From contig CAZCTC010000023.1 in NCBI GenBank assembly GCA_964501335.1, positions 23,216-87,215 on the forward strand: a stretch of DNA of 64,000 bases. Reading direction: 5' to 3'. A program made the position numbers and the translations under genes. This stretch comes from an uncultured Anaerolineales bacterium. Lineage in GTDB: Bacteria > Chloroflexota > Anaerolineae > B4-G1 > SLSP01. How positions within the stretch are numbered: the stretch's first letter is position 1; each line of letters opens with the position of its first letter. Under the pieces are notes generated by a model. The model saw nothing but the letters and a program-made list of their open reading frames with translations, was not told the DNA's origin and made no database searches. Positions 34,277-60,182 of this stretch are shown one piece after another.

Positions 34277-34337
34277 TAAAAACTGTTTTTAATCTATGAA
34301 AATGAACAATCGCATCGGTCGATAAATTTCGGCCTTG

Positions 34338-34346: not shown

Positions 34347-34476
34347 AAATCAGAGATTGCGCAGGCTTCTCTCTCCATAAAACACTCCCAACCACACTAT
34401 AAATGCATTCGTGCATAGAACCGGTGATCTTTCACCCTGTGCTCATTGATAAAATACAGAGGCGTGCGAAAATAGC

Positions 34477-39747: not shown

Positions 39748-39751
39748 GTTC

Positions 39752-39936
39752 GAAAAAAGCTGTATTTTTGCGCGCAAAAATACCAATAAAAAATCGACCT
39801 GTGCGGTTAGGCTGAGAAAAAAGCCCATATTTTCGGCGGCTTTCTGAAGCCGCCGAAAATATGAATAAAAATAATTCTCTCTGCCTGCTTCGCACGACGC
39901 GGCGATTCTCAGCGGGAAGGTACCAGTTGCGGGACG
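39752..39936 (+). repeat. Mosaic repeat tract: loop-less R2 palindrome, GACCTGTGCGGTT block, R2 hairpin, motif B
   Basis: GTATTTTTGCGCGCAAAAATAC (39762-39783). CATATTTTCGGCGGCTT-TCTG-AAGCCGCCGAAAATATG (39826-39863). Motif B at 39884-39936 ends 20 nt before the RR start codon. Confidence 0.9.
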
Positions 39937-39956
39937 CTAAATAGAAAGTTGCATTC

Positions 39957-40778
39957 ATGATCACTATGAAAATCACAGAAAAGACCAGACTGAACACCGC
40001 TCATATTTTAGTCGTCGACGACGAAACCACAGCCCGTGGAGCCATCGCTCGCGCCCTGCAATTGAGCGGTTATCAGGTCCAGGAAGCCGATTCCGGCGAA
40101 GAAGCCCTCCAATATCTCAATGCCCAACCTTACGATGTCATGCTGCTCGATCTCCGCATGCCCGGAATTGACGGCGTCACCGTCATGCGCCATATCCGCG
40201 CCGAACATCCCCACACCACCGTCATCGTCTTGACCGGTTATGCCACCCTGGAAAGCGCCATCGAAGCCGTCAAGGTAGGGGCGGCCGATTACTTGATGAA
40301 ACCTTGCAGCATCCGGGAAATCATCACCGCCGTGGAAAATGCCCATCAACGCCGCCAGGAACCGCGCCTGAGACAACAACTTATTGAAGTCATGCAAGAA
40401 GCCCTGGGAGCCCTGCAAACCCCCGCCCCGCCGCCCGTCGTCACGACAACACCACCATCCCATACCCCCAGCCCCTTACAACTGGATTCCGCCCGTCAGC
40501 AGCTTCTCTGGAACCCTATGAACAACACTGCCCCCCTCTCCGTCGAACTGACGACGCACGAAACAACCCTGCTTACCTACCAAATGGAACATCCCAACGC
40601 CATCCTCACCTGCAATGAACTCGCGACGGTGCTGGGATATGAGCAAATCGCAGCCTGGGAAGCCCAGGAGATCGTGCGTCCGCATATCTCCCGCCTCCGC
40701 CAAAAAATCCGCCGGCTCACCCCCGAAGAAATTATCTTCACCATCCGCGGCAAAGGCTACCGCTTCAACCTCCCCTGA
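39957..40778 (+). CDS. OmpR/PhoB-type response regulator (REC plus winged-helix) with a Pro-rich linker
   Basis: ILVVDDETTARGAI...LLDLRMPGIDG; C-terminal ...RPHISRLRQKI...IFTIRGKGYRF. Confidence 0.85.
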   Translation: MITMKITEKTRLNTAHILVVDDETTARGAIARALQLSGYQVQEADSGEEALQYLNAQPYDVMLLDLRMPGIDGVTVMRHIRAEHPHTTVIVLTGYATLESAIEAVKVGAADYLMKPCSIREIITAVENAHQRRQEPRLRQQLIEVMQEALGALQTPAPPPVVTTTPPSHTPSPLQLDSARQQLLWNPMNNTAPLSVELTTHETTLLTYQMEHPNAILTCNELATVLGYEQIAAWEAQEIVRPHISRLRQKIRRLTPEEIIFTIRGKGYRFNLP

Positions 40779-40801: not shown

Positions 40802-40867
40802 GGGCGGCCACATCGGGCCGCCCCTACCCAAATGCCGCCAATGTAGGGGTACCCCTTGTGGGTACCC
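40802..40867 (-). repeat. REPIN-like inverted palindrome doublet (R1), copy a
   Basis: GGGCGGCC-ACATCG-GGCCGCCC-CTAC...GTAG-GGGTACCC-CTTGTG-GGTACCC. Starts 24 nt after the RR stop. One palindrome carries the paired change GGGCGCCC to GGGTACCC. Confidence 0.85.
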
Positions 40868-40885
40868 AATCCTGACAAATCGTCT

Positions 40886-40937
40886 ATTTTCATCCTTCGG
40901 GGTGCCGCCCCCCGCATGGCCTTCTGTCCTGAAAATA
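40886..40937 (+). repeat. R5 repeat, copy 1
   Basis: ATTTTCATCCTTCGGGGTGCCGCCCCCCGCATGGCCTTCTGTCCTGAAAATA. A near-identical second copy lies at 41228-41277. Confidence 0.9.
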
Positions 40938-41060
40938 GCCCCGTCTAAGGTGCGACGCACTTTCTATCCCTAGAACCACCGATTCAAACGGACCCATCTG
41001 AAGGCAAGTCGCCTGTCCTTGCAAGATCAGAGTGCGTTGCACCTCTTTAGAAAATCACCC

Positions 41061-41222
41061 TCACCCGCACAAAGCCCCTCTCCTGTAAGTTGCGCCGCGC
41101 TGGATCGGAAGAGAGAGTTTTTTTGTTGATGTTTTGGTGCGCCTCAGAAGGCGCACCAAAACATAGGCTTTTTCAGAGCCGCACAGGCGACGCAGGCTGT
41201 CTACTTGCCGCTGTCTACTTCC
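41061..41222 (-). repeat. Mosaic repeat tract in inverted orientation: motif B, R2 hairpin, CTGTGCGG block, GTAGACAG block
   Basis: Reverse complement reads GAAGTAGACAGCGGCAAGTAGACAGCC...CGCCTGTGCGGCTCTGAAAAAGCCT-ATGTTTTGGTGCGCCT-TCTG-AGGCGCACCAAAACAT-CAACAAAAAAACTCTCTC...ATCCAGCGCGGCGC...CTTTGTGCGGGTGA. Confidence 0.85.
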
Positions 41223-41227
41223 GCTGA

Positions 41228-41277
41228 ATTTTCATCCTTCGGGGTGCTCCCCTGCATGGCCTTCTGTCCTGAAAATA
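41228..41277 (+). repeat. R5 repeat, copy 2
   Basis: ATTTTCATCCTTCGGGGTGCTCCCCTGCATGGCCTTCTGTCCTGAAAATA. Differs from copy 1 only in the central G/C segment. Confidence 0.9.
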
Positions 41278-41541
41278 AGCCGGGGCCTTTAACGCAGAGT
41301 CGCAAAGTTGCAGAGGCGCAGAGCCAGAGAAAATAATCTATCCCTCTCTGCGTCTCTCTGTGATCTCTGCGCCTCTGTGGTGAAATCTCTTTCTCCTCCT
41401 TCCAGGTGCCGCCCCCTGCAAGCTTTTGCAAACAATTGCAAGCACCGCCCTCCCTCTCTTCCGTTAAAATTAAACATACGTTGTCATAGCATTATCGTCA
41501 CGCCCATCATTGGCGCCCCAGGTCCAAATCGAGGATCAATC

Positions 41542-42087
41542 ATGAAACACACAGCAGATGCACTTAAATTCGCTTCGGGGAATTTGCTGACGTTCCGGAT
41601 GGGACCCCAACATTACGCCCTGCCGATTGAAACAATCGTGCGCGTCATCGAAATGGTCACCATCGCCCCCCTGCCGCAAGTCGATCCCAGCGTTGTCGGC
41701 GTGATCAATGTCAACGGCGCCCTGGTCCCGGTCGTCGACCTCCGCCGGCATCTGCACCTTCCCGAAATCCCCTGGGACCTGCATACCCCCATCATCTTGA
41801 TCCGTCTCGACCCCCAAACCATCGGACTGATCGTCGATGAGGTTTTAGACATTCTCGAACTGCCGGCAGATCAACGCATCGCGCCGGCCGCCATCCTCCC
41901 GGCCACCCTCGGCCAGATCTCCGTCCTGCAAGGCCTCCTTTATCATGAAGGAGCCACCCTGTTGATTCTGGACAGCTCCCGCCTCTTCGACCCGCAACAG
42001 GCCGGCCTGCTCGCCGAAGCCACGACCTTTCTGACAAAGGCCCCTCCGGAACCTGCCGCGGAGAACGCCGATGCCCACAACACCTGA
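41542..42087 (+). CDS. cheW: CheW-like coupling protein
   Basis: LLTFRMGPQHYALPIETIVRVIEM...VVGVINVNGALVPVVDLRRHL. GAGGA RBS lies before the ATG at 41542. The 41308 ORF extension runs through repeats. Confidence 0.85.
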   Translation: MKHTADALKFASGNLLTFRMGPQHYALPIETIVRVIEMVTIAPLPQVDPSVVGVINVNGALVPVVDLRRHLHLPEIPWDLHTPIILIRLDPQTIGLIVDEVLDILELPADQRIAPAAILPATLGQISVLQGLLYHEGATLLILDSSRLFDPQQAGLLAEATTFLTKAPPEPAAENADAHNT

Positions 42088-43573
42088 TCAAATCGCCTCC
42101 GAGTCCTTAGGATACGGCGATTACGTCCGCTTCAGCAAGTTACTGCTGGACCGCTACGGACTCTACTTCTCCGAACGTCGCCGCGGCGAACTGGACAACG
42201 CCGTCCGCAAAAGCTTCGCCGCCTCTACCTGCAAAGATCTCACCGAATACTACACCCTCCTGGTTGACCAAAGCGACGGCGGACTGGAACTGGAACGACT
42301 GATCAATGCAGCCACCGTCAATGAAACCTACTTCTTCCGCGACTCCGCCCAGTTCGACGCCCTCACCCAATCGGTCCTGCCCGAAATCATCGAACGCCGG
42401 CGCAGCCTGCGCACCATCCGAATCTGGAGCGCCGGCTGCGCCAGCGGCGAAGAACCCTACTCCATCGCCATGCTGCTCTGCCACCTGCTGCCCGACATCC
42501 AGGATTGGGCCATCACCATCCTCGGCACCGATATCAACACCGAAGCCCTCGACCGGGCCCGCCAGGGCATCTACGGCGAATGGGCCTTCCGTGAAACCCA
42601 GGCCCGCGAATGGCGCCCCCGTTACTTCCATCCCCACGGCCCCCGCTGGGAACTGGACCCACAGATCCGCCGCATGGTCACCTTCAATCCGCTCAATCTG
42701 GCCGAGTCGGTCTACCCGACCTATACCACCAACACCATGTACCTCGATCTGATCATCTGCCGCAATGTCACCATCTATTTCAATGAACAGGTCACCCAAA
42801 CCGTCGTCAACCACTTCTACGACGCCCTCATCGACGGCGGCTGGCTGATTGTAGGACATGCCGAACTTTCCCTCAATGTCTATCGCAAATTCACCCCGCG
42901 CAACTACCTCAATGCCGTTTTCTATCAAAAACCCTCCAGTACCCCGGTTCAAATACCAGCCCTGACGCCGCCCCCCGTTACCCTCGAACCGGCAAAAACC
43001 GAGCCCCCCAAAACATCCCTTCACCAGACGGCCCCGCTCCCCGCATCCATTCCACCGCCTTCCTTGCTGGAACAGGCCCGCAAGTATCTTGAATACGGTC
43101 AGTCCCAAAAGGTCAAAGATCTCCTCCTGCCCGCCCTCAAGCAAAGTGGCATAGACCGTGCCGCCTGTTACACGCTGCTGGGACAGGCCTGCGCCAACCT
43201 CAACCAGCTGGAAGAAGCCGAAAACTGGTGCCAGGAAGCCGTCAAAATCGACCGCCTGGCCCTGGAAGCCTATTACACTCTCGGCCTGGTCCTTCAACAT
43301 CAAAAGCGGATCGATCAGGCCATCGAAGCCTTGAAAAAAGTAATCTACATCGACCACAACGACATCCTCGGCCATTTCACCATTGCCCGCCTCTACTATG
43401 AACGAGGAATGCACTCTCAGGCCCTCAAAGCTCTGGACAATGCCCGCCGGCTGCTGGAAAACCGCTCCGACGACAGCGTCGTACCCCGCTCCGGCAACGT
43501 CACCGTCAAACGGCTGCGCGACGCCGTCACCCGCCAGCAGCAACAATGGACCGCCCAGTCCACCAAAAACTAA
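42071..43573 (+). CDS. cheR: CheR-type MCP methyltransferase with a C-terminal TPR domain
   Basis: CheR_N plus SAM domain (NETYFFRDSAQF...IRIWSAGCASGEEPYSIAMLL...ICRNVTIYF), followed by TPR repeats (aa ~340-470). Confidence 0.9.
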   Translation: MPTTPDQIASESLGYGDYVRFSKLLLDRYGLYFSERRRGELDNAVRKSFAASTCKDLTEYYTLLVDQSDGGLELERLINAATVNETYFFRDSAQFDALTQSVLPEIIERRRSLRTIRIWSAGCASGEEPYSIAMLLCHLLPDIQDWAITILGTDINTEALDRARQGIYGEWAFRETQAREWRPRYFHPHGPRWELDPQIRRMVTFNPLNLAESVYPTYTTNTMYLDLIICRNVTIYFNEQVTQTVVNHFYDALIDGGWLIVGHAELSLNVYRKFTPRNYLNAVFYQKPSSTPVQIPALTPPPVTLEPAKTEPPKTSLHQTAPLPASIPPPSLLEQARKYLEYGQSQKVKDLLLPALKQSGIDRAACYTLLGQACANLNQLEEAENWCQEAVKIDRLALEAYYTLGLVLQHQKRIDQAIEALKKVIYIDHNDILGHFTIARLYYERGMHSQALKALDNARRLLENRSDDSVVPRSGNVTVKRLRDAVTRQQQQWTAQSTKN

Positions 43574-43639
43574 TAAATAACTCGAGTTGCTACCTCGATA
43601 AATCTGGCACATTATTCAAGATCCGCTGCATGCCATCCA

Positions 43640-43810
43640 GAAGTAGACAGCAGCAAGTAGACAGTAGACAGCAAAAATCTTCGCCTTACCGGCTCAATGA
43701 ACTGAAAAGCCCATTTTTTCGCACTGACAGTGCGAAAAAATGAATAAAAATTAATTTTTCTCCCCCTCCAGCGCGTCGTCTCTTACGGAGAAAATGCCCT
43801 GTGCGGGATG
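43640..43810 (+). repeat. Mosaic repeat tract: GTAGACAG block, R2 hairpin, motif B
   Basis: GAAGTAGACAGCAGCAAGTAGACAGTAGACAGC (43640-43672). CATTTTTTCGCAC-TGACA-GTGCGAAAAAATG (43712-43742). Motif B at 43766-43810 ends 15 nt before the cheW ATG. Confidence 0.9.
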
Positions 43811-43825
43811 TTACAAGAGGAAAAT

Positions 43826-44482
43826 ATGAAAAACAAATCACAGTCCACCCTACAACAAAAAACCAACTTGAATTGGGATCAACTCCATGAGCGCATCGCC
43901 GCCGTCGAAAGCGCCCTGGACGAAACCAGCACCGCCAGCCCCGAAACCCTCCACCGCGCCTGGGCCCAACGCGCCGCTCAAATCGCCCGCAAAGCCGCCG
44001 AGGGCGACCTCGGCGAACAATGTCAGCTGGTCGTCGTCCGCCTGGGACAGGAACTCTACGGCCTGGAAGTCCAATACGTCTTCGATGTCCGCCCGCTGGA
44101 ACGCCTCACCCCCATCCCCCGCCTCCCCCACTGGGTTCTGGGCGTCGTCAACCTGCGCGGCCAGATCCTCTCCGTCGTCGATCTCGCCGGCTTCCTGGGC
44201 CTGCCCCACGCCGATAAACCGGCCGAATCCGACTATCTGGTCGTCATCGAAACCCCCGAAATGGAGCTGGCCCTGCGCGTCGATGAGATCTTCCGGGTCG
44301 AATCGCTTCCCGCCAACCATATCCACGACCCGGCCGGCATGGCGCTCAACATCCGCACCCAATATGTCCGCGGCGTCGCCGAATTACAAAAAAGCGATGA
44401 AATCTCCGATCTGATGGTCATCCTGGATCTGCCGGCCCTGCTGCGCGATCCGCAACTCATCATTCACGAAGAAAGCCTGTAA
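43826..44482 (+). CDS. cheW: CheW-like coupling protein (second copy)
   Basis: QLVVVRLGQELYGLEVQYVFDV...VLGVVNLRGQILSVVDLAGFLGL. AGAGGA RBS lies before the ATG at 43826. The upstream ATG at 43808 lies inside motif B. Confidence 0.85.
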   Translation: MKNKSQSTLQQKTNLNWDQLHERIAAVESALDETSTASPETLHRAWAQRAAQIARKAAEGDLGEQCQLVVVRLGQELYGLEVQYVFDVRPLERLTPIPRLPHWVLGVVNLRGQILSVVDLAGFLGLPHADKPAESDYLVVIETPEMELALRVDEIFRVESLPANHIHDPAGMALNIRTQYVRGVAELQKSDEISDLMVILDLPALLRDPQLIIHEESL

Positions 44483-44494
44483 AGAGAGGAACCC

Positions 44495-45115
44495 ATGGCC
44501 TTCACCTACTTTTTCCGGGATCCGGAGACGCTGGCATTGATCGTCAAACACGCTTTGCCCGATCTCAGCACGCGCTGCTACATCAATATCTGGGATGCCG
44601 GCTGCGCGCACGGCCCGGAACCCTACTCCCTGGCCATTACGCTCCGGGAAAACATGGGGCGCTTCCTCTTCCGCAATGTACGCATCTACGCCACCGATCT
44701 GGATGAAAACGACACCTTCGGGGGGATCATCGCCCGCGGCTGTTACAACGAAGCCGAAACCCGCCGCATCCCGGCCGATATCTTGGCGCGCTACTTCGAT
44801 CCCCAACCCGAAGGATTTCAAGTAAAAGCAGAAATCCGGCAGACCGTCCGCTACCAGCGTCACGATCTGCTTTCCCTGCAGCCCATCCGGGAAGAGCTTG
44901 GACTGATTGTCTGCAAAAATGTCCTGTTGCACCTCTCGCCGGCCGATCGCATTGCCATCATCCACATGTTCCACGCCGCTCTGGCTGAAGGCGGTTATCT
45001 GGTCACCGAGCCCACCCAGAAACTGCCGCCCGAAGTCGAACCGTTCTTCCACCCCCTTACCGAGGTCGGACAGCTCTGGCAAAAGGTCACAGCCTCCGTC
45101 CCACAACTCTGTTGA
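44495..45115 (+). CDS. Short CheR-like SAM-dependent methyltransferase lacking the CheR N-terminal helical domain
   Basis: Begins directly at the TYFFRD motif ([13 protein letters not shown]...). [21 protein letters not shown]...VCKNVLLHL. Confidence 0.8.
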
Positions 45116-45152
45116 ACACATTCAACATAACAGTCAAAAAAGGGGGAACATC

Positions 45153-47720
45153 ATGAACGCTTTAAATGACATGAAAGTCGGTACCAAACTTATCCTCAGC
45201 TTCTTGCTGATTGCCTTCATCCTGGCCGGCGTCTCAGTGATCAACTACCTCAACATGAGCAACGTCGATAAAAATGTCGACGCGCTCTATAACGACCGCA
45301 TGCTTCCGGTCAACCAGCTGCAAAACGCCCGCGCCGCCATTCAGACCATCCGGGGCAATCTTTTTAAAATGCTCCTTTTCCCGGAAGAACGGGCCGATAA
45401 AGAAGCCGATATCAGAGACCAGATCGGCATCATCAACGATAACATCGCCGCCTACAAAGACACCTATCTGGTCGATGAAGAAAAAGCGGCTTTAAAAATA
45501 TTCGAGTCGGCCTGGACCACCTATCAAAACCGGGTCCTGGCCGACGTCGAATCGATCCAGGAAGGCGATGAGGCCGCCGCCCGCCAACATCTGCAGGAAG
45601 GCGGCCTTACCGACAATGCCCGCGAAGCCGTCGGCGACACCCTGGATGAACTGATCCGGATCAATTTAGACCTGGGCAAAGAAGCTCACGACAACGCTCA
45701 AATTACCTATAGCAACGCCAATCTGATCTCACTGATCGCCGGGATCTTCGGCGTTATTCTTGCCATCGGCCTCGGACTGGTCATCAACCAGGGCATCACC
45801 GGCCCCCTGAACCGGGGCGTCAAAATGATGGAAGAAATGAGCCTGGGACACCTGAGCATTCGTCTGCGCATGGACCGCAAAGACGAAATCGGCATCCTCG
45901 CCCGCGCCATGGATAGCTTCGCCGACGACCTGCAAGTCCTTGTCGTCGGTTCGCTCAAACGGATCGCCGACGGCGACCTTTCAGTCGAAGTCCCGATCAA
46001 AGACAACCGGGACGAAATCGGTCCGGCCATGAACCAGATCCTCGCCTCGCTGCGCGGCCTCATCGCCGAAGCCGGCACCCTCACCCGCGCCGCCGTCGAC
46101 GGCCGGCTCTCCGTCCGCGGCGAGGCCGGCAAATTCAAAGGCGGCTACCGCGAGATCGTCCAGGGCGTCAACGACACCCTCGATGCCGTCATCGGCCCTC
46201 TCAACGTCGCCGCCGAATATGTCGAACGCATCTCCCGCGGCGATATGCCCCCCGTTATCACCGACACCTACCACGGTGACTTCAACGAGATCAAGAACAA
46301 CCTCAATACCCTCATCGCCACCCTCAACAGCCTGATCGAAGAAGCCAAGATCCTCACCCGCGCCGCCGTGGACGGCAAACTCGCCACCCGTGGAGACAGC
46401 AATAAATTTAAAGGCGGTTACCGCGAAATCGTCCAGGGCGTCAACGATACCCTCGATGCCGTCATCGTCCCCCTCAATGTCGCCGCCAGATATGTCGAGC
46501 AAATCTCCCGTGGCGATATACCCCAACCCATCACCGACACCTACCACGGCGATTTCAATGAAATCAAAAACAATCTCAATACCCTCATCCTCACTCTTAA
46601 CAACCTTATCGGCGAAGCCAATATGCTGACCCGCGCCGCCGTCGACGGCAAACTCGCCACCCGCGGCGATGCAACCAAATTCAAAGGCGGCTACCGTGAA
46701 ATCGTCGGGGGCGTCAACGACACCCTCGATGCCGTCATCACCCCCCTCAATGTCGCTGCCGACTACGTCGACCGCATGGCCCGCGGCGAGATCCCCCAGC
46801 CCATCACCGACCGCTACAACGGCGACTTCGACACCTTCAAGAACAACCTCAACCGCCTGAGCGATCAGCTCCGCACCATGCTCCGCAACTTCAACGACGC
46901 CAGCAACAACCTCGCCTCCGCCGCCGCCGAAATCCTCGCCGCCACCACCCAGCAGGCCTCCGGCGCCAGCGAACAATCCGCCGCCATCTCCCAGACCACC
47001 ACCACCGTCGACGAGGTCAAGGCCATCGCCGAACAGGCCGCCTCCCGCGCTCAGGAAGTCGCCAACGCCGGCCAGCGCACCCTCGAAGTCTCCCGCACCG
47101 GCCAGAAAGCCGTCCAGGACACCATCGACAGCATGGCCCAGATCAAAGAACAGGTCGAAGGGATCGCCGAAAACATCGTCGCCCTCTCCGAACAGACCCA
47201 GCAGATCAGCGAGATCATCGCCTCCGTCAACGAGATCGCCGCCCAATCCAACATGCTCGCCCTCAACGCCTCCATCGAGGCCGCCCGCGCCGGCGAATAC
47301 GGCAAGGGCTTCGCCGTCGTCGCCATGGAAGTCCGCAATCTCGCCGAGCAATCTCGACAGGCCACCACCCAGGTCAAAACCATCCTCTCCGAAATCCAGC
47401 GCGCCACCAACGCCACCGCCATGGCCACCGAGGAAGGCGCCAAAGGCGTCGACATGGGCGTCCAGCTCGCCGCCCAGGCCCGGCTCTCCATCGACCAGAT
47501 GTACAGCGTGATCAGCGAATCCGCCCAGGCCGCCTCCCAGGTCCTCGCCGGCAGCCGCCAGCAGGTCTCCGGCGTCGAACAGATGGCCGTCGCCATGCAG
47601 AACATCAACCAGGCCACCGTCCAGAGCCTGGCCAGCACCCGGCAGGCCGAGCGCGCCGCCCAGAGCCTCAACGAACTCGCCCGCGCCCTCATCCAGAACG
47701 TCGCCCAATACCGGATCTAG
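45153..47720 (+). CDS. Methyl-accepting chemotaxis protein with a 4HB-like sensor, HAMP and three 91-aa tandem repeats
   Basis: TM1 ([18 protein letters not shown]), a ~190-aa helical sensor, TM2, HAMP, repeats at 46059-46877, and signalling domain [47 protein letters not shown] lies before the ATG at 45153. Confidence 0.9.
46761..47689 (+). repeat. 929-bp segment of MCP-1 that appears identical to 49730-50658 in MCP-2
   Basis: Translations are identical in three reading frames across the segment (sense frame plus two antisense shadow ORFs), and spot-checked nucleotide lines are identical. Confidence 0.85.
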
Positions 47721-47843
47721 GGATGGGACACACCCGGGATCTTTTAACAGAAATGGTTTTACAGGGCCGGTTTTGGGCGCCCACACAGGGGCGCCCCTAC
47801 ATCAGAGGGCCTTTTGTAGGGGCGGCCCGATGTGGCCGCCCTA
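47721..47843 (+). repeat. REPIN-like doublet (R1) with a 54-bp conserved leader, copy b
   Basis: Starts at the first base after the MCP-1 stop. GGGCGCCC-ACACAG-GGGCGCCC-CTAC-ATCAGAGGGCCTTTT-GTAG-GGGCGGCC-CGATGT-GGCCGCCC (47775-47841). The leader GGGATGGGACA...TTTTAACAGAAATGGTTTTA also occurs, reverse-complemented, at 60381-60435. Confidence 0.9.
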
Positions 47844-47850
47844 TAAAAAA

Positions 47851-48058
47851 AAGCCTCTGTTTTCGCTCTGATAAAAAGCCTATGTTTTCGCGGGCTTTCT
47901 GAAGCCCGCGAAAACATAAATAAAAAATTCTCTTTCCCTATCTGGCGCGTCGCCTTTTACCTTAAAAAGGCCTGTTGCGGGACGTAAAAAGCCGACATTT
48001 AAACAAACAACCGCACCGGCAAAAAACATTACGTTTTACGTTTCACGTTTTACGTTTC
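47851..48058 (+). repeat. Mosaic repeat tract: partial R2 arm, R2 hairpin, motif B, CCGCAC block, four ACGTTTY heptads
   Basis: Hairpin TATGTTTTCGCGGGCTT-TCTG-AAGCCCGCGAAAACATA (47881-47918). Motif B at 47940-47984. ACGTTTT ACGTTTC ACGTTTT ACGTTTC at 48031-48058. 47873-48052 is duplicated at 51019-51197. Confidence 0.9.
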
Positions 48059-48076
48059 AGATCCCGGAGGTACATC

Positions 48077-50689
48077 ATGAACAACCTGAGGATTGGCGTC
48101 AAATTAATTGGTGCATTCATCATCGTCGCCCTGATTGCCGGCATCACCGGCGCCGTCGGCTACGTGAGCCTGTCCAGCGTTACCGACTCTTACAACATGG
48201 TCACGGAAAACTACCTGCCTGCCGTCCATGCCCTGGGCGTCATCAACGAAGCTCAAACCGCCATCGACTCCGGGTACAACAACCTCGCCAATCCCATGTT
48301 GGAAGACCCCCAACTGCGCAAGGCCGAATTCACCAATATCGATAGGGCCTACGAACGGTACACAGCGGCTTTAAAGATCTATGAACCGACCATCCTCCCC
48401 GGCACCCAGGAAGAAAGTCTCTTCGATGACTTTGAAATCAAATGGAAAAACTGGGAAACCGATTACCAAACCATCGTCGATCTGGCCCGGGAAGAAGATC
48501 AACTGCGCGCCGGGAACATTTCGACCAACGACGCTCGCATCCAGGAAATCGACGATCAAATCTATTCAGCCGTACTCGACATTGATGACAGCTTTACGGC
48601 GGCCGAAACGGCGCTCGCAGCATTGGTCGATTACAATTACACCCAGGCCGGCCTGGCGGATAAATCCGCCGATGCCCAATCTGAAAATTCCCGCAACCTC
48701 ATCCTCGCCGTCATCGGCTTTGCCATGATCACCGCCATCATCCTGGGCTGGGTTCTTTCCAACAGCATCACCAGCCCTCTGAGCCAGGGCGTCCAAATGA
48801 TGCAGGAACTGAGCCTGGGACACCTCGGAATCCGCCTCTATATGACTCGCAAAGACGAGATCGGGGTGCTCGCCCGCGCCATGGACCGCTTCGCCGACGA
48901 CCTCCAGGTTGTCGTGGTCGGCTCACTGAAACGGATCGCCGACGGCGACCTCTCCATGGAAATCACCCCCAAAGACGGCCAGGATGAGATCGCTCCGGCC
49001 CTCAAACAGATCGTCGCCGCCCTCCGCGGCCTCATCGCCGAAGCCGGCACCCTCACCCGCGCCGCCGTCGACGGCCGGCTCTCCGTCCGCGGCGAGGCCG
49101 GCAAATTCAAAGGCGGCTACCGCGAGATCGTCCAGGGCGTCAACGACACCCTCGACGCCGTCATCGGCCCCCTCAATGTCGCCGCCGAATATGTCGAACG
49201 CATCGCCCGCGGCGATATGCCCCCCACCATCACCGACAAATACAACGGCGACTTCAATGAGATCAAGAACAACCTCAACACCCTCATCACCACCCTCAAC
49301 CTCTTCGCCGAAGAAAACGCCCGCATGAGCCGCGAACAGAACGCCGGCGACCTCGACGCCCGCATCAATGTCGAGCGCTTCTCCGGCTTCTACCGCCAGA
49401 TCGCCCAGGGCGTCGTCGATCAGGTCTTCGAGCACATCCGCATCAAACGGATGATCACCGAGGTCGTCGGCCGCTACGGCGAAGGCGACTTCTCCGCCAC
49501 CATGGAAAAACTCCCCGGCAAGAAGGCCTTCATCAACGAACGACTCGATACCGTCAAAGCCAACCTCAGCAGCCTCGTCGAAGAGGTCAACACCCTCTCC
49601 CGCGCCGCCGTCGACGGCAAACTCGCCACCCGCGCCAACGCCAATCGCTTCAAAGGCGGCTGGAACGCCCTCGTCCGCGGCCTCAACGACATCCTCGACT
49701 CGGTCATCACCCCCCTCAACGTCGCCGCCGACTACGTCGACCGCATGGCCCGCGGCGAGATCCCCCAGCCCATCACCGACCGCTACAACGGCGACTTCGA
49801 CACCTTCAAGAACAACCTCAACCGCCTGAGCGATCAGCTCCGCACCATGCTCCGCAACTTCAACGACGCCAGCAACAACCTCGCCTCCGCCGCCGCCGAA
49901 ATCCTCGCCGCCACCACCCAGCAGGCCTCCGGCGCCAGCGAACAATCCGCCGCCATCTCCCAGACCACCACCACCGTCGACGAGGTCAAGGCCATCGCCG
50001 AACAGGCCGCCTCCCGCGCTCAGGAAGTCGCCAACGCCGGCCAGCGCACCCTCGAAGTCTCCCGCACCGGCCAGAAAGCCGTCCAGGACACCATCGACAG
50101 CATGGCCCAGATCAAAGAACAGGTCGAAGGGATCGCCGAAAACATCGTCGCCCTCTCCGAACAGACCCAGCAGATCAGCGAGATCATCGCCTCCGTCAAC
50201 GAGATCGCCGCCCAATCCAACATGCTCGCCCTCAACGCCTCCATCGAGGCCGCCCGCGCCGGCGAATACGGCAAGGGCTTCGCCGTCGTCGCCATGGAAG
50301 TCCGCAATCTCGCCGAGCAATCTCGACAGGCCACCACCCAGGTCAAAACCATCCTCTCCGAAATCCAGCGCGCCACCAACGCCACCGCCATGGCCACCGA
50401 GGAAGGCGCCAAAGGCGTCGACATGGGCGTCCAGCTCGCCGCCCAGGCCCGGCTCTCCATCGACCAGATGTACAGCGTGATCAGCGAATCCGCCCAGGCC
50501 GCCTCCCAGGTCCTCGCCGGCAGCCGCCAGCAGGTCTCCGGCGTCGAACAGATGGCCGTCGCCATGCAGAACATCAACCAGGCCACCGTCCAGAGCCTGG
50601 CCAGCACCCGGCAGGCCGAGCGCGCCGCCCAGAGCCTCAACGAACTCGCCCGCGCCCTGCTCCAGAACGTCGCCCAATATCGAATCTAG
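48077..50689 (+). CDS. Methyl-accepting chemotaxis protein (paralogue of MCP-1 with a different sensor domain)
   Basis: TM1 ([18 protein letters not shown]), a ~220-aa helical sensor, TM2, HAMP, and repeat units. The C-terminal ~310 aa are identical to MCP-1. GGAGG RBS lies before the ATG at 48077. Confidence 0.9.
49730..50658 (+). repeat. 929-bp segment of MCP-2 that appears identical to 46761-47689
   Basis: See 46761-47689. Identity ends 31 nt before each stop codon (ALIQNV vs ALLQNV). Confidence 0.85.
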
Positions 50690-50720
50690 GCATTTTATTA
50701 ACATGTACAAACCCCGGGGA

Positions 50721-50787
50721 GGGCGCCCACGCCGGGGCGCCCCTACATCAGAGGGCCTATTGTAGGGGCGGCCCGATGTGGCCGCCC
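50721..50787 (+). repeat. REPIN-like doublet (R1), copy c
   Basis: GGGCGCCC-ACGCCG-GGGCGCCC-CTAC-ATCAGAGGGCCTATT-GTAG-GGGCGGCC-CGATGT-GGCCGCCC, 32 nt after the MCP-2 stop. Confidence 0.9.
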
Positions 50788-50789
50788 TA

Positions 50790-51197
50790 TAAAAAATTCT
50801 CTCTGTCGCCTGGCATCCAGCGCGTCGATTCGAACCGGACAAAGTGTAAGCTTTACGGTTAGCCCGAAAGGCTCAAGAAAAAAGCCCATATTTTGGGCGG
50901 CTTTCTGAAGCCGCCCAAAATATAAATTAAAAAAAATCTCTCTGTCTATCTGGCGCGTCGCTTTTTGCCGAAAAAATGCCTGTTGCGGGGGCATAAAAAA
51001 CCGGGTTTTAGCACTCTCAAAAAGCCTATGTTTTCGCGGGCTTTCTGAAGCCCGCGAAAACATAAATAAAAAATTCTCTTTCCCTATCTGGCGCGTCGCC
51101 TTTTACCTTAAAAAGGCCTGTTGCGGGACGTAAAAAGCCGACATTTAAACAAACAACCGCAGGCAAAAAAACATTACGTTTTACGTTTCACGTTTTA
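50790..51197 (+). repeat. Mosaic repeat tract with two complete tandem units plus a truncated motif B and three ACGTTTY heptads
   Basis: Truncated motif B near 50813-50830. Hairpin ATATTTTGGGCGGCTT-TCTG-AAGCCGCCCAAAATAT (50888-50923). Motif B at 50948-50990. Hairpin at 51027-51064. Motif B at 51086-51130. Heptads at 51176-51196. Confidence 0.9.
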
Positions 51198-51211
51198 GGA
51201 AGGAGGGTCCC

Positions 51212-53551
51212 ATGTCCCTCAGTGCACAAATTCGGGCACAATTGATCAATAGCTTTCGGGCAGAACTCGCCGAACACATCCAAACGATGACGGACGGCCT
51301 GCTCGCCCTGGAACAACATAAACTTACTCCCGAGCAGGAACCGGAAACGCTCCAGAGCCTCTTCCGTGCCGCCCATAGCCTTAAAGGCGCCGCCCGTGCC
51401 GTCGGTGTGACCGCCATCGAGCAGTTGGGCCACGCCCTGGAAGATGTCCTGGACAGTCTGCAACGCCGTCGGCTCACTCCCACACCAGAACTCTTCTCAG
51501 CCTGCTATCGCACATTGGACACCATCCAGGTGGTCCAGACCGCCTATGAAGCCGGCGCGATCACCCCTCCGATTCAGGTCCTGCAGGCACTCACGGCGCT
51601 GGAACCCTTCCAAAGCAACGCCGCTCCGGCCGGCGACCCTCCAGCGGCGAAAGCGGAAAACGGCGGAGATCCCCCGTCCAATCAAACTCCGGCTCAACCC
51701 CCTGTACCGCCAACTCCACCGGCACCGCCCACACCTCCGGCCTCCAGCCCGGCGCCCGTGCCCGCCGCCAACAACGACACCATCCGCATCCATGCCAGCA
51801 AACTGGATGCCCTGCTCGCCCAGTTGAGTGAATTGCACGTCGCCCGGATTCGCGCCGAACAACGCACCGTCCAGGTCCATCAGGCCCAGGAAGAAATGAG
51901 CCAGTGGCAAAAAGAATGGCTGTCCGTCCGCGAAAGCTACAACCGTCTGGTCCGCCGCTCTGCCAATCGCACCGGCGAACGCGACACCCTCACCCTTCAT
52001 GACACAGACCGACTGCTGGCCTATCTGGAAAACAGCCAGGAACGGCTCCACGAAATGAGCTCCCTGGTCAATCATCTGGCCCGCGAATACAGCAACGACT
52101 CCATGCAACTCTCCATGGCCATCGACGCCCTGGAAGAAGATGTCAAACGGGCCCGCCTGCTCCCACTCAGCACCATCACCGCCCCCTTCGGCCGAATGGT
52201 GCGCGATCTCGCTCAGACCTCCGGAAAATCGGTAACCCTGCAAATCATCGGCAGCGATGTCGAACTGGATAAACGGGTTCTGGAACAGATCAAAGATCCC
52301 TTGATCCATCTGCTGCGCAATGCTGTCGATCACGGCATCGAAACAGCAGAACAACGCACCGCCGCCGGAAAATCGCTCAACGGCCGCATCGTTCTCAAAG
52401 CCGAACAGGCCGGCAAAGAGATCCTCCTCACGGTCAGCGACGACGGAAACGGCCTCAATCTCGAATCCATCCGTCAGGTCGCCGCCCAGCGCGGCCTGGG
52501 CGATCCCGCCGCCATGAACGACGCCGACCTGGCCGAAGTGATCTTCCATGCCGGCGTCTCCACCAGCCAGACAGTCACCGACGTTTCGGGACGCGGCGTC
52601 GGCCTGGATGTGGTCCGGCGCAATGTCGAAGCCCTGCAAGGCCGGATCGCCGTCACCTGGAAAGCCGGAGCCGGTTCGACCTTCACCCTGACCCTGCCCC
52701 TCGCCCTGACCAGCTCCCGGGCCCTGATGGTCAAAGCCGCGCAGCAATCCTTTGCCATTCCGGTCGGCGCCATCGAACGGATCGTACCGGCCGGCCGCGA
52801 ACAGATCCTCTCCGTCGGCGGCCATGAAACCCTGCAATACAACGGCCGCCCACTGCCGGTCGTCCATCTTTGCGATGTCCTCAACATCCCCCGCAACGGG
52901 GAGATGCACAACGACGGACGCTTCACCATCCTGATCCTGGCCTCCGTCGAACGCAAAATGGCCTTCGTCGTCAGTGAACTGGTCGGCGAACAGGAAGTGG
53001 TCATCAAAGGGCTCGGCCGTCAGATCCAACGGGTCAACGGAATCGCCGGCGCCACCATCCTCGGCAACGGAGACGTCCTCCTGATCCTCAATGTCGGGGA
53101 TCTGATCAAACTGGCGCTGCGCAGTGAACGGCGAGCCATCGTGACCACCAACGGAGAAACCGGCAACGTTTCCTCTCCAACCGCCACCAAACAGATCCTG
53201 ATCGTGGATGATTCCATCACCACCCGCACCCTGGAAAAGAACATCCTCGAAGCCGCCGGTTTTGTCGTCTGGGTCGCCACCGACGGGCAGGAAGCCCTTT
53301 CCCACATCATGGAAAACGGCCTGCCCGACCTGGTCATCTCGGATGTCTCAATGCCGCGCATCACCGGCGTCGAACTGACCCGCCACATCAAAACCGACCC
53401 CCGCACCGCGGCCATTCCGGTCATCCTCGTCACCTCGCTCGACTCGCCGGAAGACAAAGCCCGCGGCATCGAAGCCGGCGCCGACGCCTACATCATCAAA
53501 AGCCATTTCGACCAGGACAACCTCCTGGAAACTATCCATCAATTGATTTGA
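51212..53551 (+). CDS. cheA: CheA histidine kinase with a fused C-terminal receiver and a Pro-rich linker in place of P2
   Basis: Hpt FRAAHSLKGAARAVG. Linker PPVPPTPPAPPTPPASSPAPVP. HATPase (HLLRNAVDHGIE, SDDGNGL, GRGVGLDVV). CheW-like P5. REC (ILIVDDSITTR...VISDVSMPRITG). Confidence 0.9.
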   Translation: MSLSAQIRAQLINSFRAELAEHIQTMTDGLLALEQHKLTPEQEPETLQSLFRAAHSLKGAARAVGVTAIEQLGHALEDVLDSLQRRRLTPTPELFSACYRTLDTIQVVQTAYEAGAITPPIQVLQALTALEPFQSNAAPAGDPPAAKAENGGDPPSNQTPAQPPVPPTPPAPPTPPASSPAPVPAANNDTIRIHASKLDALLAQLSELHVARIRAEQRTVQVHQAQEEMSQWQKEWLSVRESYNRLVRRSANRTGERDTLTLHDTDRLLAYLENSQERLHEMSSLVNHLAREYSNDSMQLSMAIDALEEDVKRARLLPLSTITAPFGRMVRDLAQTSGKSVTLQIIGSDVELDKRVLEQIKDPLIHLLRNAVDHGIETAEQRTAAGKSLNGRIVLKAEQAGKEILLTVSDDGNGLNLESIRQVAAQRGLGDPAAMNDADLAEVIFHAGVSTSQTVTDVSGRGVGLDVVRRNVEALQGRIAVTWKAGAGSTFTLTLPLALTSSRALMVKAAQQSFAIPVGAIERIVPAGREQILSVGGHETLQYNGRPLPVVHLCDVLNIPRNGEMHNDGRFTILILASVERKMAFVVSELVGEQEVVIKGLGRQIQRVNGIAGATILGNGDVLLILNVGDLIKLALRSERRAIVTTNGETGNVSSPTATKQILIVDDSITTRTLEKNILEAAGFVVWVATDGQEALSHIMENGLPDLVISDVSMPRITGVELTRHIKTDPRTAAIPVILVTSLDSPEDKARGIEAGADAYIIKSHFDQDNLLETIHQLI

Positions 53552-53553
53552 CT

Positions 53554-53737
53554 TATATTTTCGCGCGCGCCAGAGGCGCGCGCGAAAATATAATAAATAC
53601 AAAAATACAGTTAACCCGGAAAAGTGGAAAAAGAGCCTGTGTTTTGGCGCGTTTTCTGAAGCGCGCCAAAACACCAAAAAAATTCTCTCTCCATCCAGCG
53701 CGGCGCTCTTGACCGGAAAAGTGCCATTTGCGGGACG
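53554..53737 (+). repeat. Mosaic repeat tract: two R2 hairpins plus motif B
   Basis: TATATTTTCGCGCGCGCC-AGA-GGCGCGCGCGAAAATATA (53554-53592, begins 3 nt after the cheA stop). GTGTTTTGGCGCG...CGCGCCAAAACAC (53639-53674). Motif B at 53691-53737 ends 39 nt before the cheY ATG. Confidence 0.9.
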
Positions 53738-53776
53738 AAAAAAGCAGTTTTCAACCCGAAAAAATAAGGGGTAAAT

Positions 53777-54148
53777 ATGTTAACCATCCTGATGATCGAA
53801 GACAGTCTCGTACAGGGAGAGCTCACCCAGGACTTCCTCGGCCAATACGGCATCCAGGTCAAATGGGCCCAAAACGGCGAAGAAGGTCTCTCGCTCGCAG
53901 AAACCGAAATGCCCGACTTCATCCTGCTGGACCTGGAAATGCCCGGACTCAGCGGCTTTGACGTCTGCCGCCAGCTGAAGTTCAATTCCGCCACGGCCGC
54001 AATCCCGGTCATCATCCTCACCGCGCACACCGAACTGCCGGCCGTGCGCGAGCTGCTGAACCTGGGCGCCATCGACTTCATTCCCAAAGATGCCTACTCT
54101 CATCAAGTGCTGGTCGAAACCCTGCGCCAACTGGGAACGGAGATCTGA
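53777..54148 (+). CDS. cheY: CheY-like single-domain response regulator
   Basis: ILMIEDSLVQGEL...ILLDLEMPGLSGFD...ILTAH...IPKD. Confidence 0.9.
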   Translation: MLTILMIEDSLVQGELTQDFLGQYGIQVKWAQNGEEGLSLAETEMPDFILLDLEMPGLSGFDVCRQLKFNSATAAIPVIILTAHTELPAVRELLNLGAIDFIPKDAYSHQVLVETLRQLGTEI

Positions 54149-54149
54149 A

Positions 54150-55214
54150 ATGGACTCCGGTCCGCTCCCCCTCAAACCGGTGCGGGTCGTGGTGGTAGAC
54201 GATTCTCCCACCATGCGCGGCCTGCTGGTTGCCATGCTCGAAAGCGCCGGTCAAATCCAGGTCGTCGGAATCGGTGAAAACGGCGAAGATGCCGTTCGCC
54301 TCACCCAGCGCATGCGTCCCGATGCTCTGGCCATGGACATCACCATGCCCAAAATGGACGGGCTGGAGGCCACACGCCAGATCATGCGCGAGATTCCCAC
54401 GCCCATCATCCTCATCTCCGGCTCGCGCGTTCAAAAAGATATCAACCTGACCTTTGAAGCGCTGCAACTGGGCGCCCTGGCCGTCGTTGAAAAACCCGGC
54501 CTGGAAAACACCCGCGCCTGGGAAGATCTCATCCGCACCATCCGATTGATGTCCGCAGTTCCCGTGGTCCGCCGCTGGGACAACAGTCGTCCGACCAGCG
54601 TCCCGGCTTTCCCCATGGCCACCGCCCGGGCTACCATTAACGAACGGCCTCAGATCATCGGTATCGCCGCCTCCACCGGCGGCCCGGGCGTCCTGGCCAC
54701 CATCCTGGGAGGGCTTTCCGCCGACTTTCCCCTCCCCATTCTGATCGTCCAGCATGTCACGCCGGGCTTTGCACAGGGCTTGGCCGAATGGCTGAACACC
54801 CAGACCCCCTTGCAGGTACGGCTGGCCGTCCACGGCGAAACGCCCCGCAGCGGCACCGTCCTGCTGGCTCCCGACGATTGCCATCTGCGCATCAACGAAC
54901 GCAACCTGGTGGAACTGAGCAAAGATCCGCCCTACAAAAAATTCCGGCCTTCCGCCAACTATCTTTTCGGCTCCCTGGCCCAATATTACGGGGCCCGCGC
55001 CGTCGGCATTGAACTTACCGGCATGGGAGACGACGGCGTGGAAGGCTTGCTCGCCCTGCATCGGGCCGGCGGCCATACGCTGGCTCAGGATGCAGAAAGT
55101 TCGGTCGTCTATGGAATGCCGCAAGAAGCCGTCTTACAAAATGCCGTCGATGAAATTCTGGCGCCGACCCAAATCACCGAGTGGCTCAATCAATTAGTAG
55201 CCCGACTCAAATAA
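54150..55214 (+). CDS. cheB: CheB protein-glutamate methylesterase (REC plus CheB_methylest)
   Basis: VRVVVVDDSPTMRGLL...AMDITMPKMDGLE. Catalytic domain IIGIAASTGGPGVL...LTGMGDDGVEGL. The ATG at 54150 lies 1 nt after the cheY stop. Confidence 0.9.
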   Translation: MDSGPLPLKPVRVVVVDDSPTMRGLLVAMLESAGQIQVVGIGENGEDAVRLTQRMRPDALAMDITMPKMDGLEATRQIMREIPTPIILISGSRVQKDINLTFEALQLGALAVVEKPGLENTRAWEDLIRTIRLMSAVPVVRRWDNSRPTSVPAFPMATARATINERPQIIGIAASTGGPGVLATILGGLSADFPLPILIVQHVTPGFAQGLAEWLNTQTPLQVRLAVHGETPRSGTVLLAPDDCHLRINERNLVELSKDPPYKKFRPSANYLFGSLAQYYGARAVGIELTGMGDDGVEGLLALHRAGGHTLAQDAESSVVYGMPQEAVLQNAVDEILAPTQITEWLNQLVARLK

Positions 55215-55215
55215 C

Positions 55216-55431
55216 CAGGCTGGAAAACAAGAGGAAAAACTATGTTCTCGCGGGCTTTCCGAAGTCGCTCCAAACATAAATAAAAATCGACCTGTGCGGT
55301 CAGCCTGGAAAACAAGAGAAAAAGCCATGTTTTCGCGGGCTTTCCGAAGCCCGCGAAAACATAAATAAAAAAAATTCTCTCCTCCCATCCAGCGCGGCGC
55401 TTTTTACCAGGAAATCATCGAGTGCAGGACG
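55216..55431 (+). repeat. Mosaic repeat tract: ~90-bp tandem duplication (decayed plus intact R2 hairpin) and motif B
   Basis: Decayed hairpin at 55241-55278. GACCTGTGCGGTCAGCCTGG block. Intact ATGTTTTCGCGGGCTT-TCCG-AAGCCCGCGAAAACAT (55327-55362). Motif B at 55385-55431. Confidence 0.85.
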
Positions 55432-55511
55432 TAACAACTGGCGGTTAAGCAGACCGACGAACCACCACACAGATTGTCAAAAAATTCAGAGGCCCTCCAG
55501 GAGGCTATGCT

Positions 55512-56243: not shown

Positions 56244-56253
56244 AGAGGGCCCC

Positions 56254-56628: not shown

Positions 56629-56631
56629 GAA

Positions 56632-57654: not shown

Positions 57655-57714
57655 CTTTTTTCTCCTTGATTTCTTACGTTGCGACACTCCGGTCACAACC
57701 ATTTAAAAGACTTG

Positions 57715-60073: not shown

Positions 60074-60182
60074 CCTCCTTTGAAGTTTGGAGCGTTCCCG
60101 CTCACGAGTATAGAATACCTCGCCCCGGGAAAAGATACCTATCGGTCGGCTATCAATCAGCTAACAAAAATCCATCATCCAG

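Follow-up and report, generated by a model that had tools for sequence, protein, structure and literature searches.

We judge it probable, on balance and from sequence, that the R2 hairpins are the palindromic core of a mosaic repeat of very high copy number that resembles REP/BIME elements, has the anatomy of a terminator in one direction only, would be lost from operons in its polar orientation, and has arms that would be kept alike by homogenisation. The hairpins were recognized in a 64,000-nucleotide stretch of DNA, the window, from an uncultured Anaerolineales bacterium, and the best reading of their distribution is that of a lineage-restricted, intergenic repeat of uncultured Anaerolineae (Chloroflexota).

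The window is a piece of bacterial chromosome encoding giant PAS/GAF sensor kinases, response regulators and a chemotaxis cluster. A two-component cluster spans 32985-40778, and the chemotaxis cluster spans 41308-56628 (41.3-56.6 kb, + strand), with genes for CheW, CheR, CheW, two MCPs, CheA, CheY, CheB and two receiver proteins. The CheA protein shares 52-61% identity with CheA proteins from Anaerolineae/Chloroflexota MAGs, and a contig from a JGI biofilm metagenome encodes exactly the same CheA and matches the window at 99.975% identity without indels. No tRNA genes were found in the window, and megablast returned no phage match to it; the bacterial signalling genes together with that absent match rule out a phage origin.

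A scan of the window for perfect inverted repeats located 14 R2 hairpins, with stems of 11-19 bp; the window also has two decayed copies. Perfect stems of at least 13 bp with a loop of at most 10 nt number 14 in the window, and R2 copies account for 12 of these, the other two being a terminator at 6717 and a hairpin at 32811. None of 15 dinucleotide-preserving shuffles contained a single perfect stem of that length, which excludes a chance origin of the R2 hairpins. A covariance model, R1, built from 28 R2 copies, finds 16 copies in the window, both decayed ones included. The features are as follows, with bit scores from this model.

1143-1208, + strand: decayed R2 copy with the hairpin unpaired, between two + strand genes (34.2 bits, E = 8.5e-5; direct-repeat family D4)
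34178-34211, + strand: R2 hairpin, 15-bp perfect stem, loop TCTT, non-terminating orientation for + strand genes (72.5 bits)
39762-39783, + strand: loop-less R2 copy, an 11-bp palindrome in tandem with the copy at 39826 (41.9 bits over 39747-39798)
39826-39863, + strand: R2 hairpin, 17 bp, core CGGCGGCTT, loop TCTG (81.4 bits)
41129-41164, - strand: the sole reversed R2 copy, 16 bp, with the hairpin and AGGCTTTTT readable on the + strand (79.1 bits on +)
43712-43742, + strand: R2 hairpin, 15-bp stem, 1-nt loop, core CGCACTG (55.3 bits)
47848-47872, + strand: remnant of the left half of a truncated R2 copy (aaaaaaaagcctctgttttcgctctga), directly upstream of the copy at 47881 (from reading the sequence)
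47881-47918, + strand: R2 hairpin, 17 bp, core CGCGGGCTT, loop TCTG, between two MCP genes (84.7 bits)
50888-50923, + strand: R2 hairpin, 16 bp, core GGGCGGCTT (78.9 bits)
51027-51064, + strand: R2 hairpin, 17 bp, identical to that at 47881 (inverted-repeat scan, model and repeat family D11)
53553-53593, + strand: R2-like hairpin, 19 bp, (CG)n core, 3-nt loop (46.7 bits)
53639-53674, + strand: R2 hairpin, 16 bp including one T·G (70 bits)
55227-55292, + strand: decayed R2 copy, first unit of an 85-nt tandem duplication at 55216-55371 (26.1 bits)
55327-55362, + strand: R2 hairpin, 16 bp, core CGCGGGCTT, loop TCCG (inverted-repeat scan, model and depth profile)
56700-56739, + strand: divergent R2 copy, 18 bp with one mismatch, flipped loop (CAGA) (64 bits)
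56842-56879, + strand: R2 hairpin, 17 bp, flipped loop (CAGA) (scan, terminator ranking and model)
60498-60535, + strand: R2 hairpin, 17 bp, loop AAGA, terminator-like on the - strand behind the - strand gene 60613-61230 (scan and model)

The copies follow the plan A5-6GCC, then YRTRTTTT plus a GC core, a 4-nt loop (usually TCTG), the complementary arm and AAYAAAAA. Their palindromes, 34-41 nt in length and as a rule perfect over 16-19 bp, with an AT-rich base and a GC-rich top, end in all copies as GCC/YRTRTTTT ... AAAAYAYR/AAA, where the slashes mark the ends. The R2-like hairpin at 53553 begins 2 nt past the CheA stop codon, and the copy at 51027 belongs to a 157-nt duplicate, in which 51005-51161 is 97% identical to 47859-48015. 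A preliminary description of the family had proposed this shared plan, which holds across the copies, and the intact copies it listed were all recovered by the inverted-repeat scan, with two start positions off by one base. The decayed copies it placed at 1150-1205 and 55241-55278 were recovered by the covariance model with the somewhat wider limits given above, and the loop-less copy proposed at 39762-39783 was found as the 11-bp palindrome. A further candidate, said to carry a 30-nt loop insertion at 60224-60273, was unconfirmed, the model giving no match there (E above 1). Copies are bimodal, either perfect or, at 1143 and 55227, with many mismatches, as would be expected if correction of one arm by the other requires a hairpin that can still form.

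Across 107 kb, made up of the window and related contigs, there are 34 strong R2 copies, at a density of 0.25-0.47 per kb, and every copy placed with respect to genes (39 of 39) is intergenic. The exact 36-mer was found in three MAG contigs from a single co-assembly, and a gapped pattern, matching at least three loci, adds at least two more contigs. A metagenome scan with an AT-rich anchor gave at least 120 matches, all by chance in low-GC DNA, and a 16-mer arm likewise gave chance matches in a 596-Gb genome collection. What the related contigs share with the window is the repeat alone, at 70-87% identity over 110-170 nt. The contig L001, which carries 12 R2 copies in a 20.9-kb stretch, was binned as 'Geobacter'. 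Because its depth profile (53.7 in run X1 and about 2 in run X2) is like that of the window (about 50 and about 2), and its proteins resemble Chloroflexi proteins, it most likely comes from the same population and was mis-binned. Sequencing depth in the run X1 metagenome is about 50 for unique flanks, while the bins of the hairpin sum to 25,000-100,000. From this depth, with double counting allowed for, the genome probably holds hundreds to about 1000 copies of R2, a number that agrees with the density per kb.

Searches with the covariance model found no R2 copy in seven other Anaerolineae chemotaxis loci, and there was no copy in viral contigs. No Rfam family matched R2 at gathering scores, with chance-level matches at E up to 1. 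A literature search on REPs of Anaerolineae yielded nothing specific, and RepRanger counts generic palindromes only. The nearest relative found, with a CheA 77% identical, has a syntenic che cluster with gaps of 11-73 nt and zero R2 copies, whereas the gaps of the che cluster in the window are 225-522 nt and filled with repeats, so that the R2 repeats appear as additions inside an otherwise compact operon. The contigs of a relative about 90% identical, from run X3, are short and broken at repeats.

The hairpin belongs to something larger. Alignment of 200 nt around each copy (A1) reveals a conserved mosaic unit much longer than the hairpin. Upstream lies module U (..CCTGTGCGGTTAGCCTGGAAAAG.GGAGAAAAAAGCC), with GTAGACAG iterons in front of it at times, and downstream lie an A-tract, module B (TCTCTCYCC..ATCCAGCGCGTCG.TTTTTACC) and module C (GCCTGTTGCGGGACG.TAAAAA). 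One unit in the window provides examples of both sides.

55287-55326, + strand: upstream module U (TCGACCTGTGCGGTYAGCCTGGAAAA..AGAAAAAGCC) (family D13, alignment A1 and depth)
55366-55420, + strand: downstream modules, with the A-tract, module B (TCTCTCC..CATCCAGCGCGKCG..TTTTTACC) and the start of module C (..TGYGCGGGACG) (alignment A1, families D7-D9)

In run X1 the A-tract with module B has a depth of 4,000-14,000 and module U of 500-1,000; the segment 55366-55420 stands at 1,000-14,000, where unique DNA has about 50. A unit may be single or paired with another in direct tandem, as in the 85-nt tandem at 55216-55371, and in the nine intergenic regions with two copies these are always direct and 65-200 nt apart. 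REP doublets of the GTAG type share the same intergenic gaps but form a separate family. The RNAalifold consensus structure supports the hairpin alone. Folds of single sequences add an outer stem, purine-rich on one side and pyrimidine-rich on the other (GGGAGA...TCTCCC), around the hairpin, and a long-range stem between modules U and B was rejected as inconsistent across copies. Other roles for the unit were considered and set aside. Consistent hexamers of a sigma-70, sigma-54, sigma-28 or ECF promoter are absent by eye from modules B and C, and promoter-like sites in a scan of 41-61 kb are at chance level (6 vs 6.8). A small ORF starting from the conserved ATG of the arm would give a peptide that differs with each stem variant. 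A gene for a small RNA that would be read from the T-rich strand and end with the hairpin lacks a promoter and would be present in about 1000 copies.

High copy number, strictly intergenic placement in both orientations, direct tandem dimers and mosaic modules would also suit a purely selfish mobile element that moves as a single-stranded DNA hairpin through a Y1 (RAYT/IS200-like) or other transposase supplied in trans and has no role in transcription; its perfect stems would reflect selection among copies for being copyable. We think this rather unlikely. It has a precedent in REPINs (PMC3116915), it fits the bimodal state of the copies, perfect or heavily decayed, and the GTAG-type REP doublets in the same DNA imply that a RAYT is probably present in the genome. 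However, RAYT cleavage requires a GTAG or CGTC tag, which the R2 ends lack, and strengthening the palindrome abolished that cleavage in vitro (PMC3733652). In the 107 kb, as far as covered by gene tables for part of the window and for contig L226 and by Pfam scans of 19 window proteins, there was no transposase gene beside any R2 copy and no Pfam match to a Y1 transposase. Neither an empty site nor an excision joint was seen, nor was a strain-level pair of filled and empty sites found; the unit boundaries are ragged, no target-site duplication was found at R2 units, and the terminal inverted repeats with a target duplication that mark a MITE could not be made out. The orientation of the copies in operons, described below, would stay unexplained by such an element unless a polar effect is added.

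A polar effect is what the anatomy of the hairpin and its flanks would predict. On the T-rich strand the stem extends beyond the palindrome by a mean of 2.4 pairs, mostly U·G, against 0.5 on the A-rich strand; it is lengthened by 2-4 U·G/G-C pairs and then followed by C and U5-6, and 25 of 28 copies have the U·G at the stem base beside the palindrome. These positions form C·A mismatches on the A-rich strand and A's come next, so that the hairpin there is bare. Of the 12 nt after the stem, on average 6.2 (at least 4) are T on the T-rich strand, compared with 1.1 on the A-rich strand, in line with the earlier observation of a U-tract on the minus strand only, although T tails are poor in a few copies (L003 1872, L226 11054). 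In a terminator scan of 41-61 kb, nine R2 copies took the top nine ranks, all on the T-rich strand. The number of terminator-like sites in that scan was at chance level overall (30 vs 27.5), and the terminator signal therefore lies in the long R2 stems rather than in the number of sites. The T-rich strand folds with an energy 4-10 kcal/mol lower than the A-rich strand. Segments of 81-86 nt that include the outer flank stem fold at -28 to -44 kcal/mol (z about -6 to -9), and the RNA of the copy at 47881 folds at -28.6 kcal/mol on the + strand (z -7.7) and at -32.2 on the - strand (z -6.3). Textbook terminators have a stronger stem base at the U-tract; that of R2 consists of A-U and U·G pairs, and a C precedes the T-run. 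Overall the anatomy is terminator-like, and R2 is a candidate intrinsic terminator on its T-rich strand, one way only. A search for transcripts found no RNA run that includes the region, and one RNA run has traces of the organism, as contigs of low depth.

Grouped by orientation, with our own gene calls for some loci, 12 intergenic regions have R2 copies in the orientation that would terminate in sense behind a gene, and another 12 have them antisense between co-directional genes; two more are divergent and two unclassified. No global orientation bias exists across the classified regions. The first copy usually lies 0-184 nt past a stop codon. In the two-component and chemotaxis clusters, a single 23-kb region, the orientation is the non-terminating one in eight of eight intergenic regions (binomial 2^-8 = 0.004). 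The sole reversed copy, at 41129, sits exactly between these two clusters, behind a gene for an OmpR-type regulator (39957-40778) and ahead of the first chemotaxis gene (41308). Three copies, at 56700, 56842 and 60498, have the terminating orientation for the minus-strand genes behind which they lie. That at 56700 offers a terminator-like site on the - strand behind the - strand gene 56917-57702. At 56842, TTTTTTT follows directly after the hairpin on the - strand, and the distance past the stop of the same gene is 37 nt for the hairpin or 24 nt for the 66-nt model match. On contig L226, terminating copies come after the final gene of closely packed groups, such as a TetR-flavodoxin group, and the single antisense copy lies in a 120-nt gap within a gene group. 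A tie between orientation and replication strand was rejected: the window fits it but the related contigs do not, and there is no link to GC skew, which is negative across the entire window.

The favoured explanation for this pattern is a filter. R2 copies would arise in intergenic DNA in either orientation, and those able to terminate would persist behind genes that end a transcription unit. Within an operon such a copy would be polar and would be lost, leaving copies in the non-terminating orientation; loss of polar copies from operons would thus account for the antisense-only look of the chemotaxis cluster. The preliminary description regarded the hairpins as terminators only for antisense transcription. 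The part of this concerning anatomy stands, since the terminator features are found on the T-rich strand only, but the family is not dedicated to antisense, with 12 intergenic regions of each kind. Within the window the antisense pattern is a local one, of two operon-like clusters, and the loss of polar insertions is the simpler explanation for it. That loss would suffice, and a selected role in insulating operons from antisense transcription would then not be needed.

The arms of the hairpin change together. In 34 copies, probably all from one population, pairing holds in 99.1% of 538 stem cells, and both sides have changed in 92 cells, compared with 22.8 +/- 3.5 in shuffles (none of 500 reaching the observed number), as the preliminary description had proposed from the window. 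Twelve of the 16 stem pairs show changes on both sides, pairing falls to 35-57% when partner columns are slid, and an independent MAFFT alignment gives the same result. The copies do not resolve into clonal subfamilies, a circumstance that would have undercut the claim: 28 copies have 19 distinct stems, linked by a minimum of 38 pair changes, and the distance between stems is only weakly linked to the distance between flanks (Mantel r = 0.17, p = 0.07). The GC core diverges between copies by 0.35 per site, against 0.35-0.39 for the flanks, and is still paired, with about 0.1 mismatches per core where about 3 would be expected if the arms varied independently.

The kinds of change do not resemble compensation at the RNA level. 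G·U pairs make up 4 of the 538 stem cells (<1%), with no strand bias, and the single-arm changes would leave a wobble on the T-rich strand in three or four cases, on the A-rich strand in two and on neither in two. The 38 inferred pair changes comprise 23 transversions and 15 transitions, and the transversions cannot pass through G·U. Read relative to the flanks, the loop is CAGA in 22 copies and its exact reverse complement, TCTG, in two; AAGA (five copies) and TCTT (two) occur as well. Intramolecular template switching at inverted repeats is described as homogenising arms, producing multi-base changes that look compensatory, and inverting loops (PMC8794818, PMC8604942, PMC7202029). In REPIN hairpins compensatory changes are common, and selection of the hairpin for propagation has been argued (PMC3116915). 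Because the changes are Watson-Crick only, rich in transversions and accompanied by reverse-complement loops, the co-variation of the arms is most likely a DNA-level homogenisation of the palindrome through template switching, and RNA-structure selection is not favoured as its driver. When one arm mutates, template switching within the molecule at replication would quickly transfer the change to the other arm or undo it. If propagation needs a DNA hairpin, selection for it among copies would give the same pattern and may add to the homogenisation. The conserved stem length, loop length and AT-rich base point to some constraint.

The same observations bear on the proposal, made in the preliminary description, that the hairpins are selected as RNA structures that end antisense transcription and so insulate operons. 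Terminator anatomy on the antisense strand at 12 copies in the che and two-component clusters, and the strong co-variation of the arms, are what it would predict. Yet half of all sites would terminate in sense behind a gene, and within the palindrome there is neither a strand bias in wobble pairs nor more than 1% of G·U. Pair swaps rich in transversions and flipped loops likewise tell against RNA selection, and the closely related syntenic operon functions with no R2 copies. We regard the proposal as quite improbable.

A role in the sense mRNA seems about as doubtful to us. The hairpin might block 3'-5' exonucleases or serve as an RNase III site and in this way set expression levels within operons. 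REPs of E. coli set differing expression levels within operons; the first R2 copy lies mostly within the 0-184 nt past a stop codon in either orientation, both strands fold very stably, and REPs have been reported mainly downstream of genes (PMC3733652). Such a role would not need the conserved asymmetric flanks, however, and does not predict the orientation pattern. An effect on sense mRNA would probably be a side effect rather than the cause of the family's existence.

More speculatively, and with a small chance of being right, R2 could be a self-templating replicator, in which one arm is re-synthesised from the other at each copying by snap-back or fold-back on single-stranded DNA. Each new copy would then start out as a perfect palindrome, even where the template arm had mutated. 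Such a cycle would explain the perfect stems despite near-neutral divergence, transversion-rich swaps, absence of G·U, reverse-complement loops and direct tandem dimers, and the host would co-opt copies as one-way transcription punctuation. We know of no description of self-templating propagation of a bacterial repeat.

That the hairpins are unrelated, ordinary terminators that converged on one form, as the variable GC stems and A/T-rich flanks of terminators in general might suggest, is scarcely credible, given flanks of 110-170 nt shared at 70-87% identity, which refute it, a conserved loop and AT-rich stem base, a depth about 1000-fold above that of unique DNA, and the wrong orientation of half of the copies.

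If the favoured reading, a homogenised palindrome with one-way terminator anatomy that is filtered by operons, is true, a few percent of an Anaerolineae genome would consist of about 1000 copies of a single perfect palindrome acting as punctuation for transcription in one direction only, and these copies would form a clean natural data set for the filtering of polar-insertion orientation by operons. Textbook covariation, the usual proof of selection on RNA structure, could then stem from DNA-level homogenisation of arms, a caution for ncRNA discovery pipelines that draw on covariation. The bacterial extragenic palindromes would gain a family that is neither GTAG nor CGTC.

Among known systems, the closest are REP/BIME elements and the REPINs, known from E. 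coli and Pseudomonas and mobilised by RAYT transposases, with which R2 shares extragenic palindromes of 20-40 nt, hundreds of copies located mostly behind genes, mosaics with other motifs, and common compensatory changes in the hairpin (PMC3116915, PMC3733652). Two REP superfamilies are defined by a GTAG or CGTC tag at the palindrome end (PMC3733652), and R2 differs in lacking either tag in all copies. Its stems are perfect where REP stems are imperfect, its doublets are direct tandems where those of REPINs are inverted and form a larger hairpin, and its asymmetric flanks, unlike those of REPs, give a one-way U-tract. SMAGs, which are GTAG-tagged and RAYT-linked, are small intergenic stem-loops with more than 1000 copies per genome and several stem variants; R2 is likewise a set of high-copy intergenic stem-loops with several stem variants, but without the GTAG tag.

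Kingsford et al. in 2007 reportedly described inverted pairs of uptake sequences and other intrinsic terminators derived from repeats; PMC12306157 cites this work and the 2010 work on SMAGs. As in those terminators, hairpins of terminator-like form throughout the genome have a repeated sequence as their stem; unlike them, R2 has the non-terminating orientation in half of its copies. Single uptake sequences are found within genes too, whereas by k-mer counts the R2 arms occur as hairpins only, and identity with a DNA uptake sequence was rejected on the ground that the arms are never single. Integron attC sites resemble R2 in having a conserved base and flanks, a variable paired centre and a position between genes, but R2 has no R''/R' core sites (RYYYAAC / GTTRRRY), extrahelical bases or integrase, and its neighbours are che and two-component genes rather than cassettes; the absent core sites, perfect stems and these neighbours led us to reject an attC identity. 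Like R2, hairpins made by template switching and quasi-palindrome correction have perfect stems, loops that are inverted, and compensatory changes of several bases at once that skip G·U intermediates (PMC8794818, PMC8604942, PMC7202029). Template switching and such correction constitute a mutational mechanism, not a family, and on R2 this mechanism would act across about 1000 dispersed copies. R2 does not, in our judgement, reveal a new kind of system, and we file it as an untagged, REP/BIME-like dispersed repeat with putative one-way terminator anatomy.

Hairpins other than the intergenic R2 repeat are also present, in the window and on another contig, L015:

Window 6717-6748: bidirectional terminator of textbook form, AAAAAAAGACGCTCA ca TGAGCGTCTTTTTTT, between convergent genes
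Window 32811-32842 and L015 2050-2081: hairpins whose core and loop resemble those of R2, on another stem base

The textbook terminator indicates that the organism also uses ordinary intrinsic terminators. Hairpins with the R2-like core, such as GAAATCGCGCGCCT caga AGGCGCGCGATTTC, score weakly against R1, the covariance model built from R2 copies (27 bits for the L015 hairpin), and may be R2 relatives or precursors.

The R2 family is also present on CAZHVY010000024.1 (L001, of which L226 is a stretch), binned as a 'Geobacter' MAG, and on contig L002, binned as a 'Cloacimonadota' MAG. Proteins of L001 resemble Chloroflexi proteins, and its depth in sequencing run X1 is 53.7, with the window at ~50; both stand at ~2 in run X2. 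L001/L226 and L002 look like mis-binned Anaerolineae contigs. Across window 1-64000, GC skew is negative throughout (-0.06 to -0.27) and AT skew positive, on plus- and minus-strand gene blocks alike, with C and A enriched on the plus strand; this uniformity places the entire window on one replichore.

Repeats also occur in and around the MCP genes and cheA:

44907-50689 overall: two paralogous MCP genes in tandem
46079-46852: internal 273-nt repeats of the MCP genes, 2.8 copies, 81% identity
48029-48059 and 51174-51197: tandem heptamer ACGTTTY, 3-4 copies

The 273-nt repeats are poly-HAMP arrays, and the 3' ends of MCP1 and MCP2 are 97% identical. Both cheA and the second MCP gene have the heptamer array just 5' of their ribosome-binding sites; the array is placed within a 157-nt duplicate (47859-48015 versus 51005-51161, 97% identity), and these two genes therefore have one common leader.

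Several further elements accompany R2 and its conserved flanking blocks, module U upstream and module C downstream:

43639-43677, 56631-56669 and 60180-60218, plus strand; 41190-41226 and 60575-60608, minus strand: iterated GTAGACAG motif (AGCAGCAAGTAGACAGTAGACAGC)
~40884-40946 and ~41229-41288, also contig L003 7-110: direct repeat of ~60 nt, ATTTTCATCCTTCGGGGTGC..GCATGGCCTTCTGTCCTGAAAATA
40803-40868, 47775-47841, 50720-50788 and 60312-60381: GTAG-type REP doublets, inverted pairs
56797-56838: module C hairpin, both arms
39798, 43798, 47971, 50979, 51117 and 55291: module C left arm alone

Module U is often directly preceded by the iterated motif, which may be a protein-binding site or an element end; at 60.2-60.6 kb, two inverted copies bracket a REP doublet and an R2 unit. 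The ~60-nt repeat, 94% identical on L003, flanks in two direct copies the block holding the only reversed R2 copy.

The GTAG-type REP doublets are a family distinct from R2 that shares its intergenic regions. Their arms (for example GGGCGCCC..GGGGCGCCCCTACA / TGTAGGGGCGGCC..GGCCGCCC) are 79-86% complementary in the window's inverted pairs, a REPIN-like arrangement. A separate hairpin can fold within module C (CCTGTGCGG - 16 nt - CCGCACAGG). In most copies of the module only the left arm is kept, with GACG after it; on the reverse strand this gives CGTC-CCGCACAGG, a sequence reminiscent of repeats with a CGTC tag.
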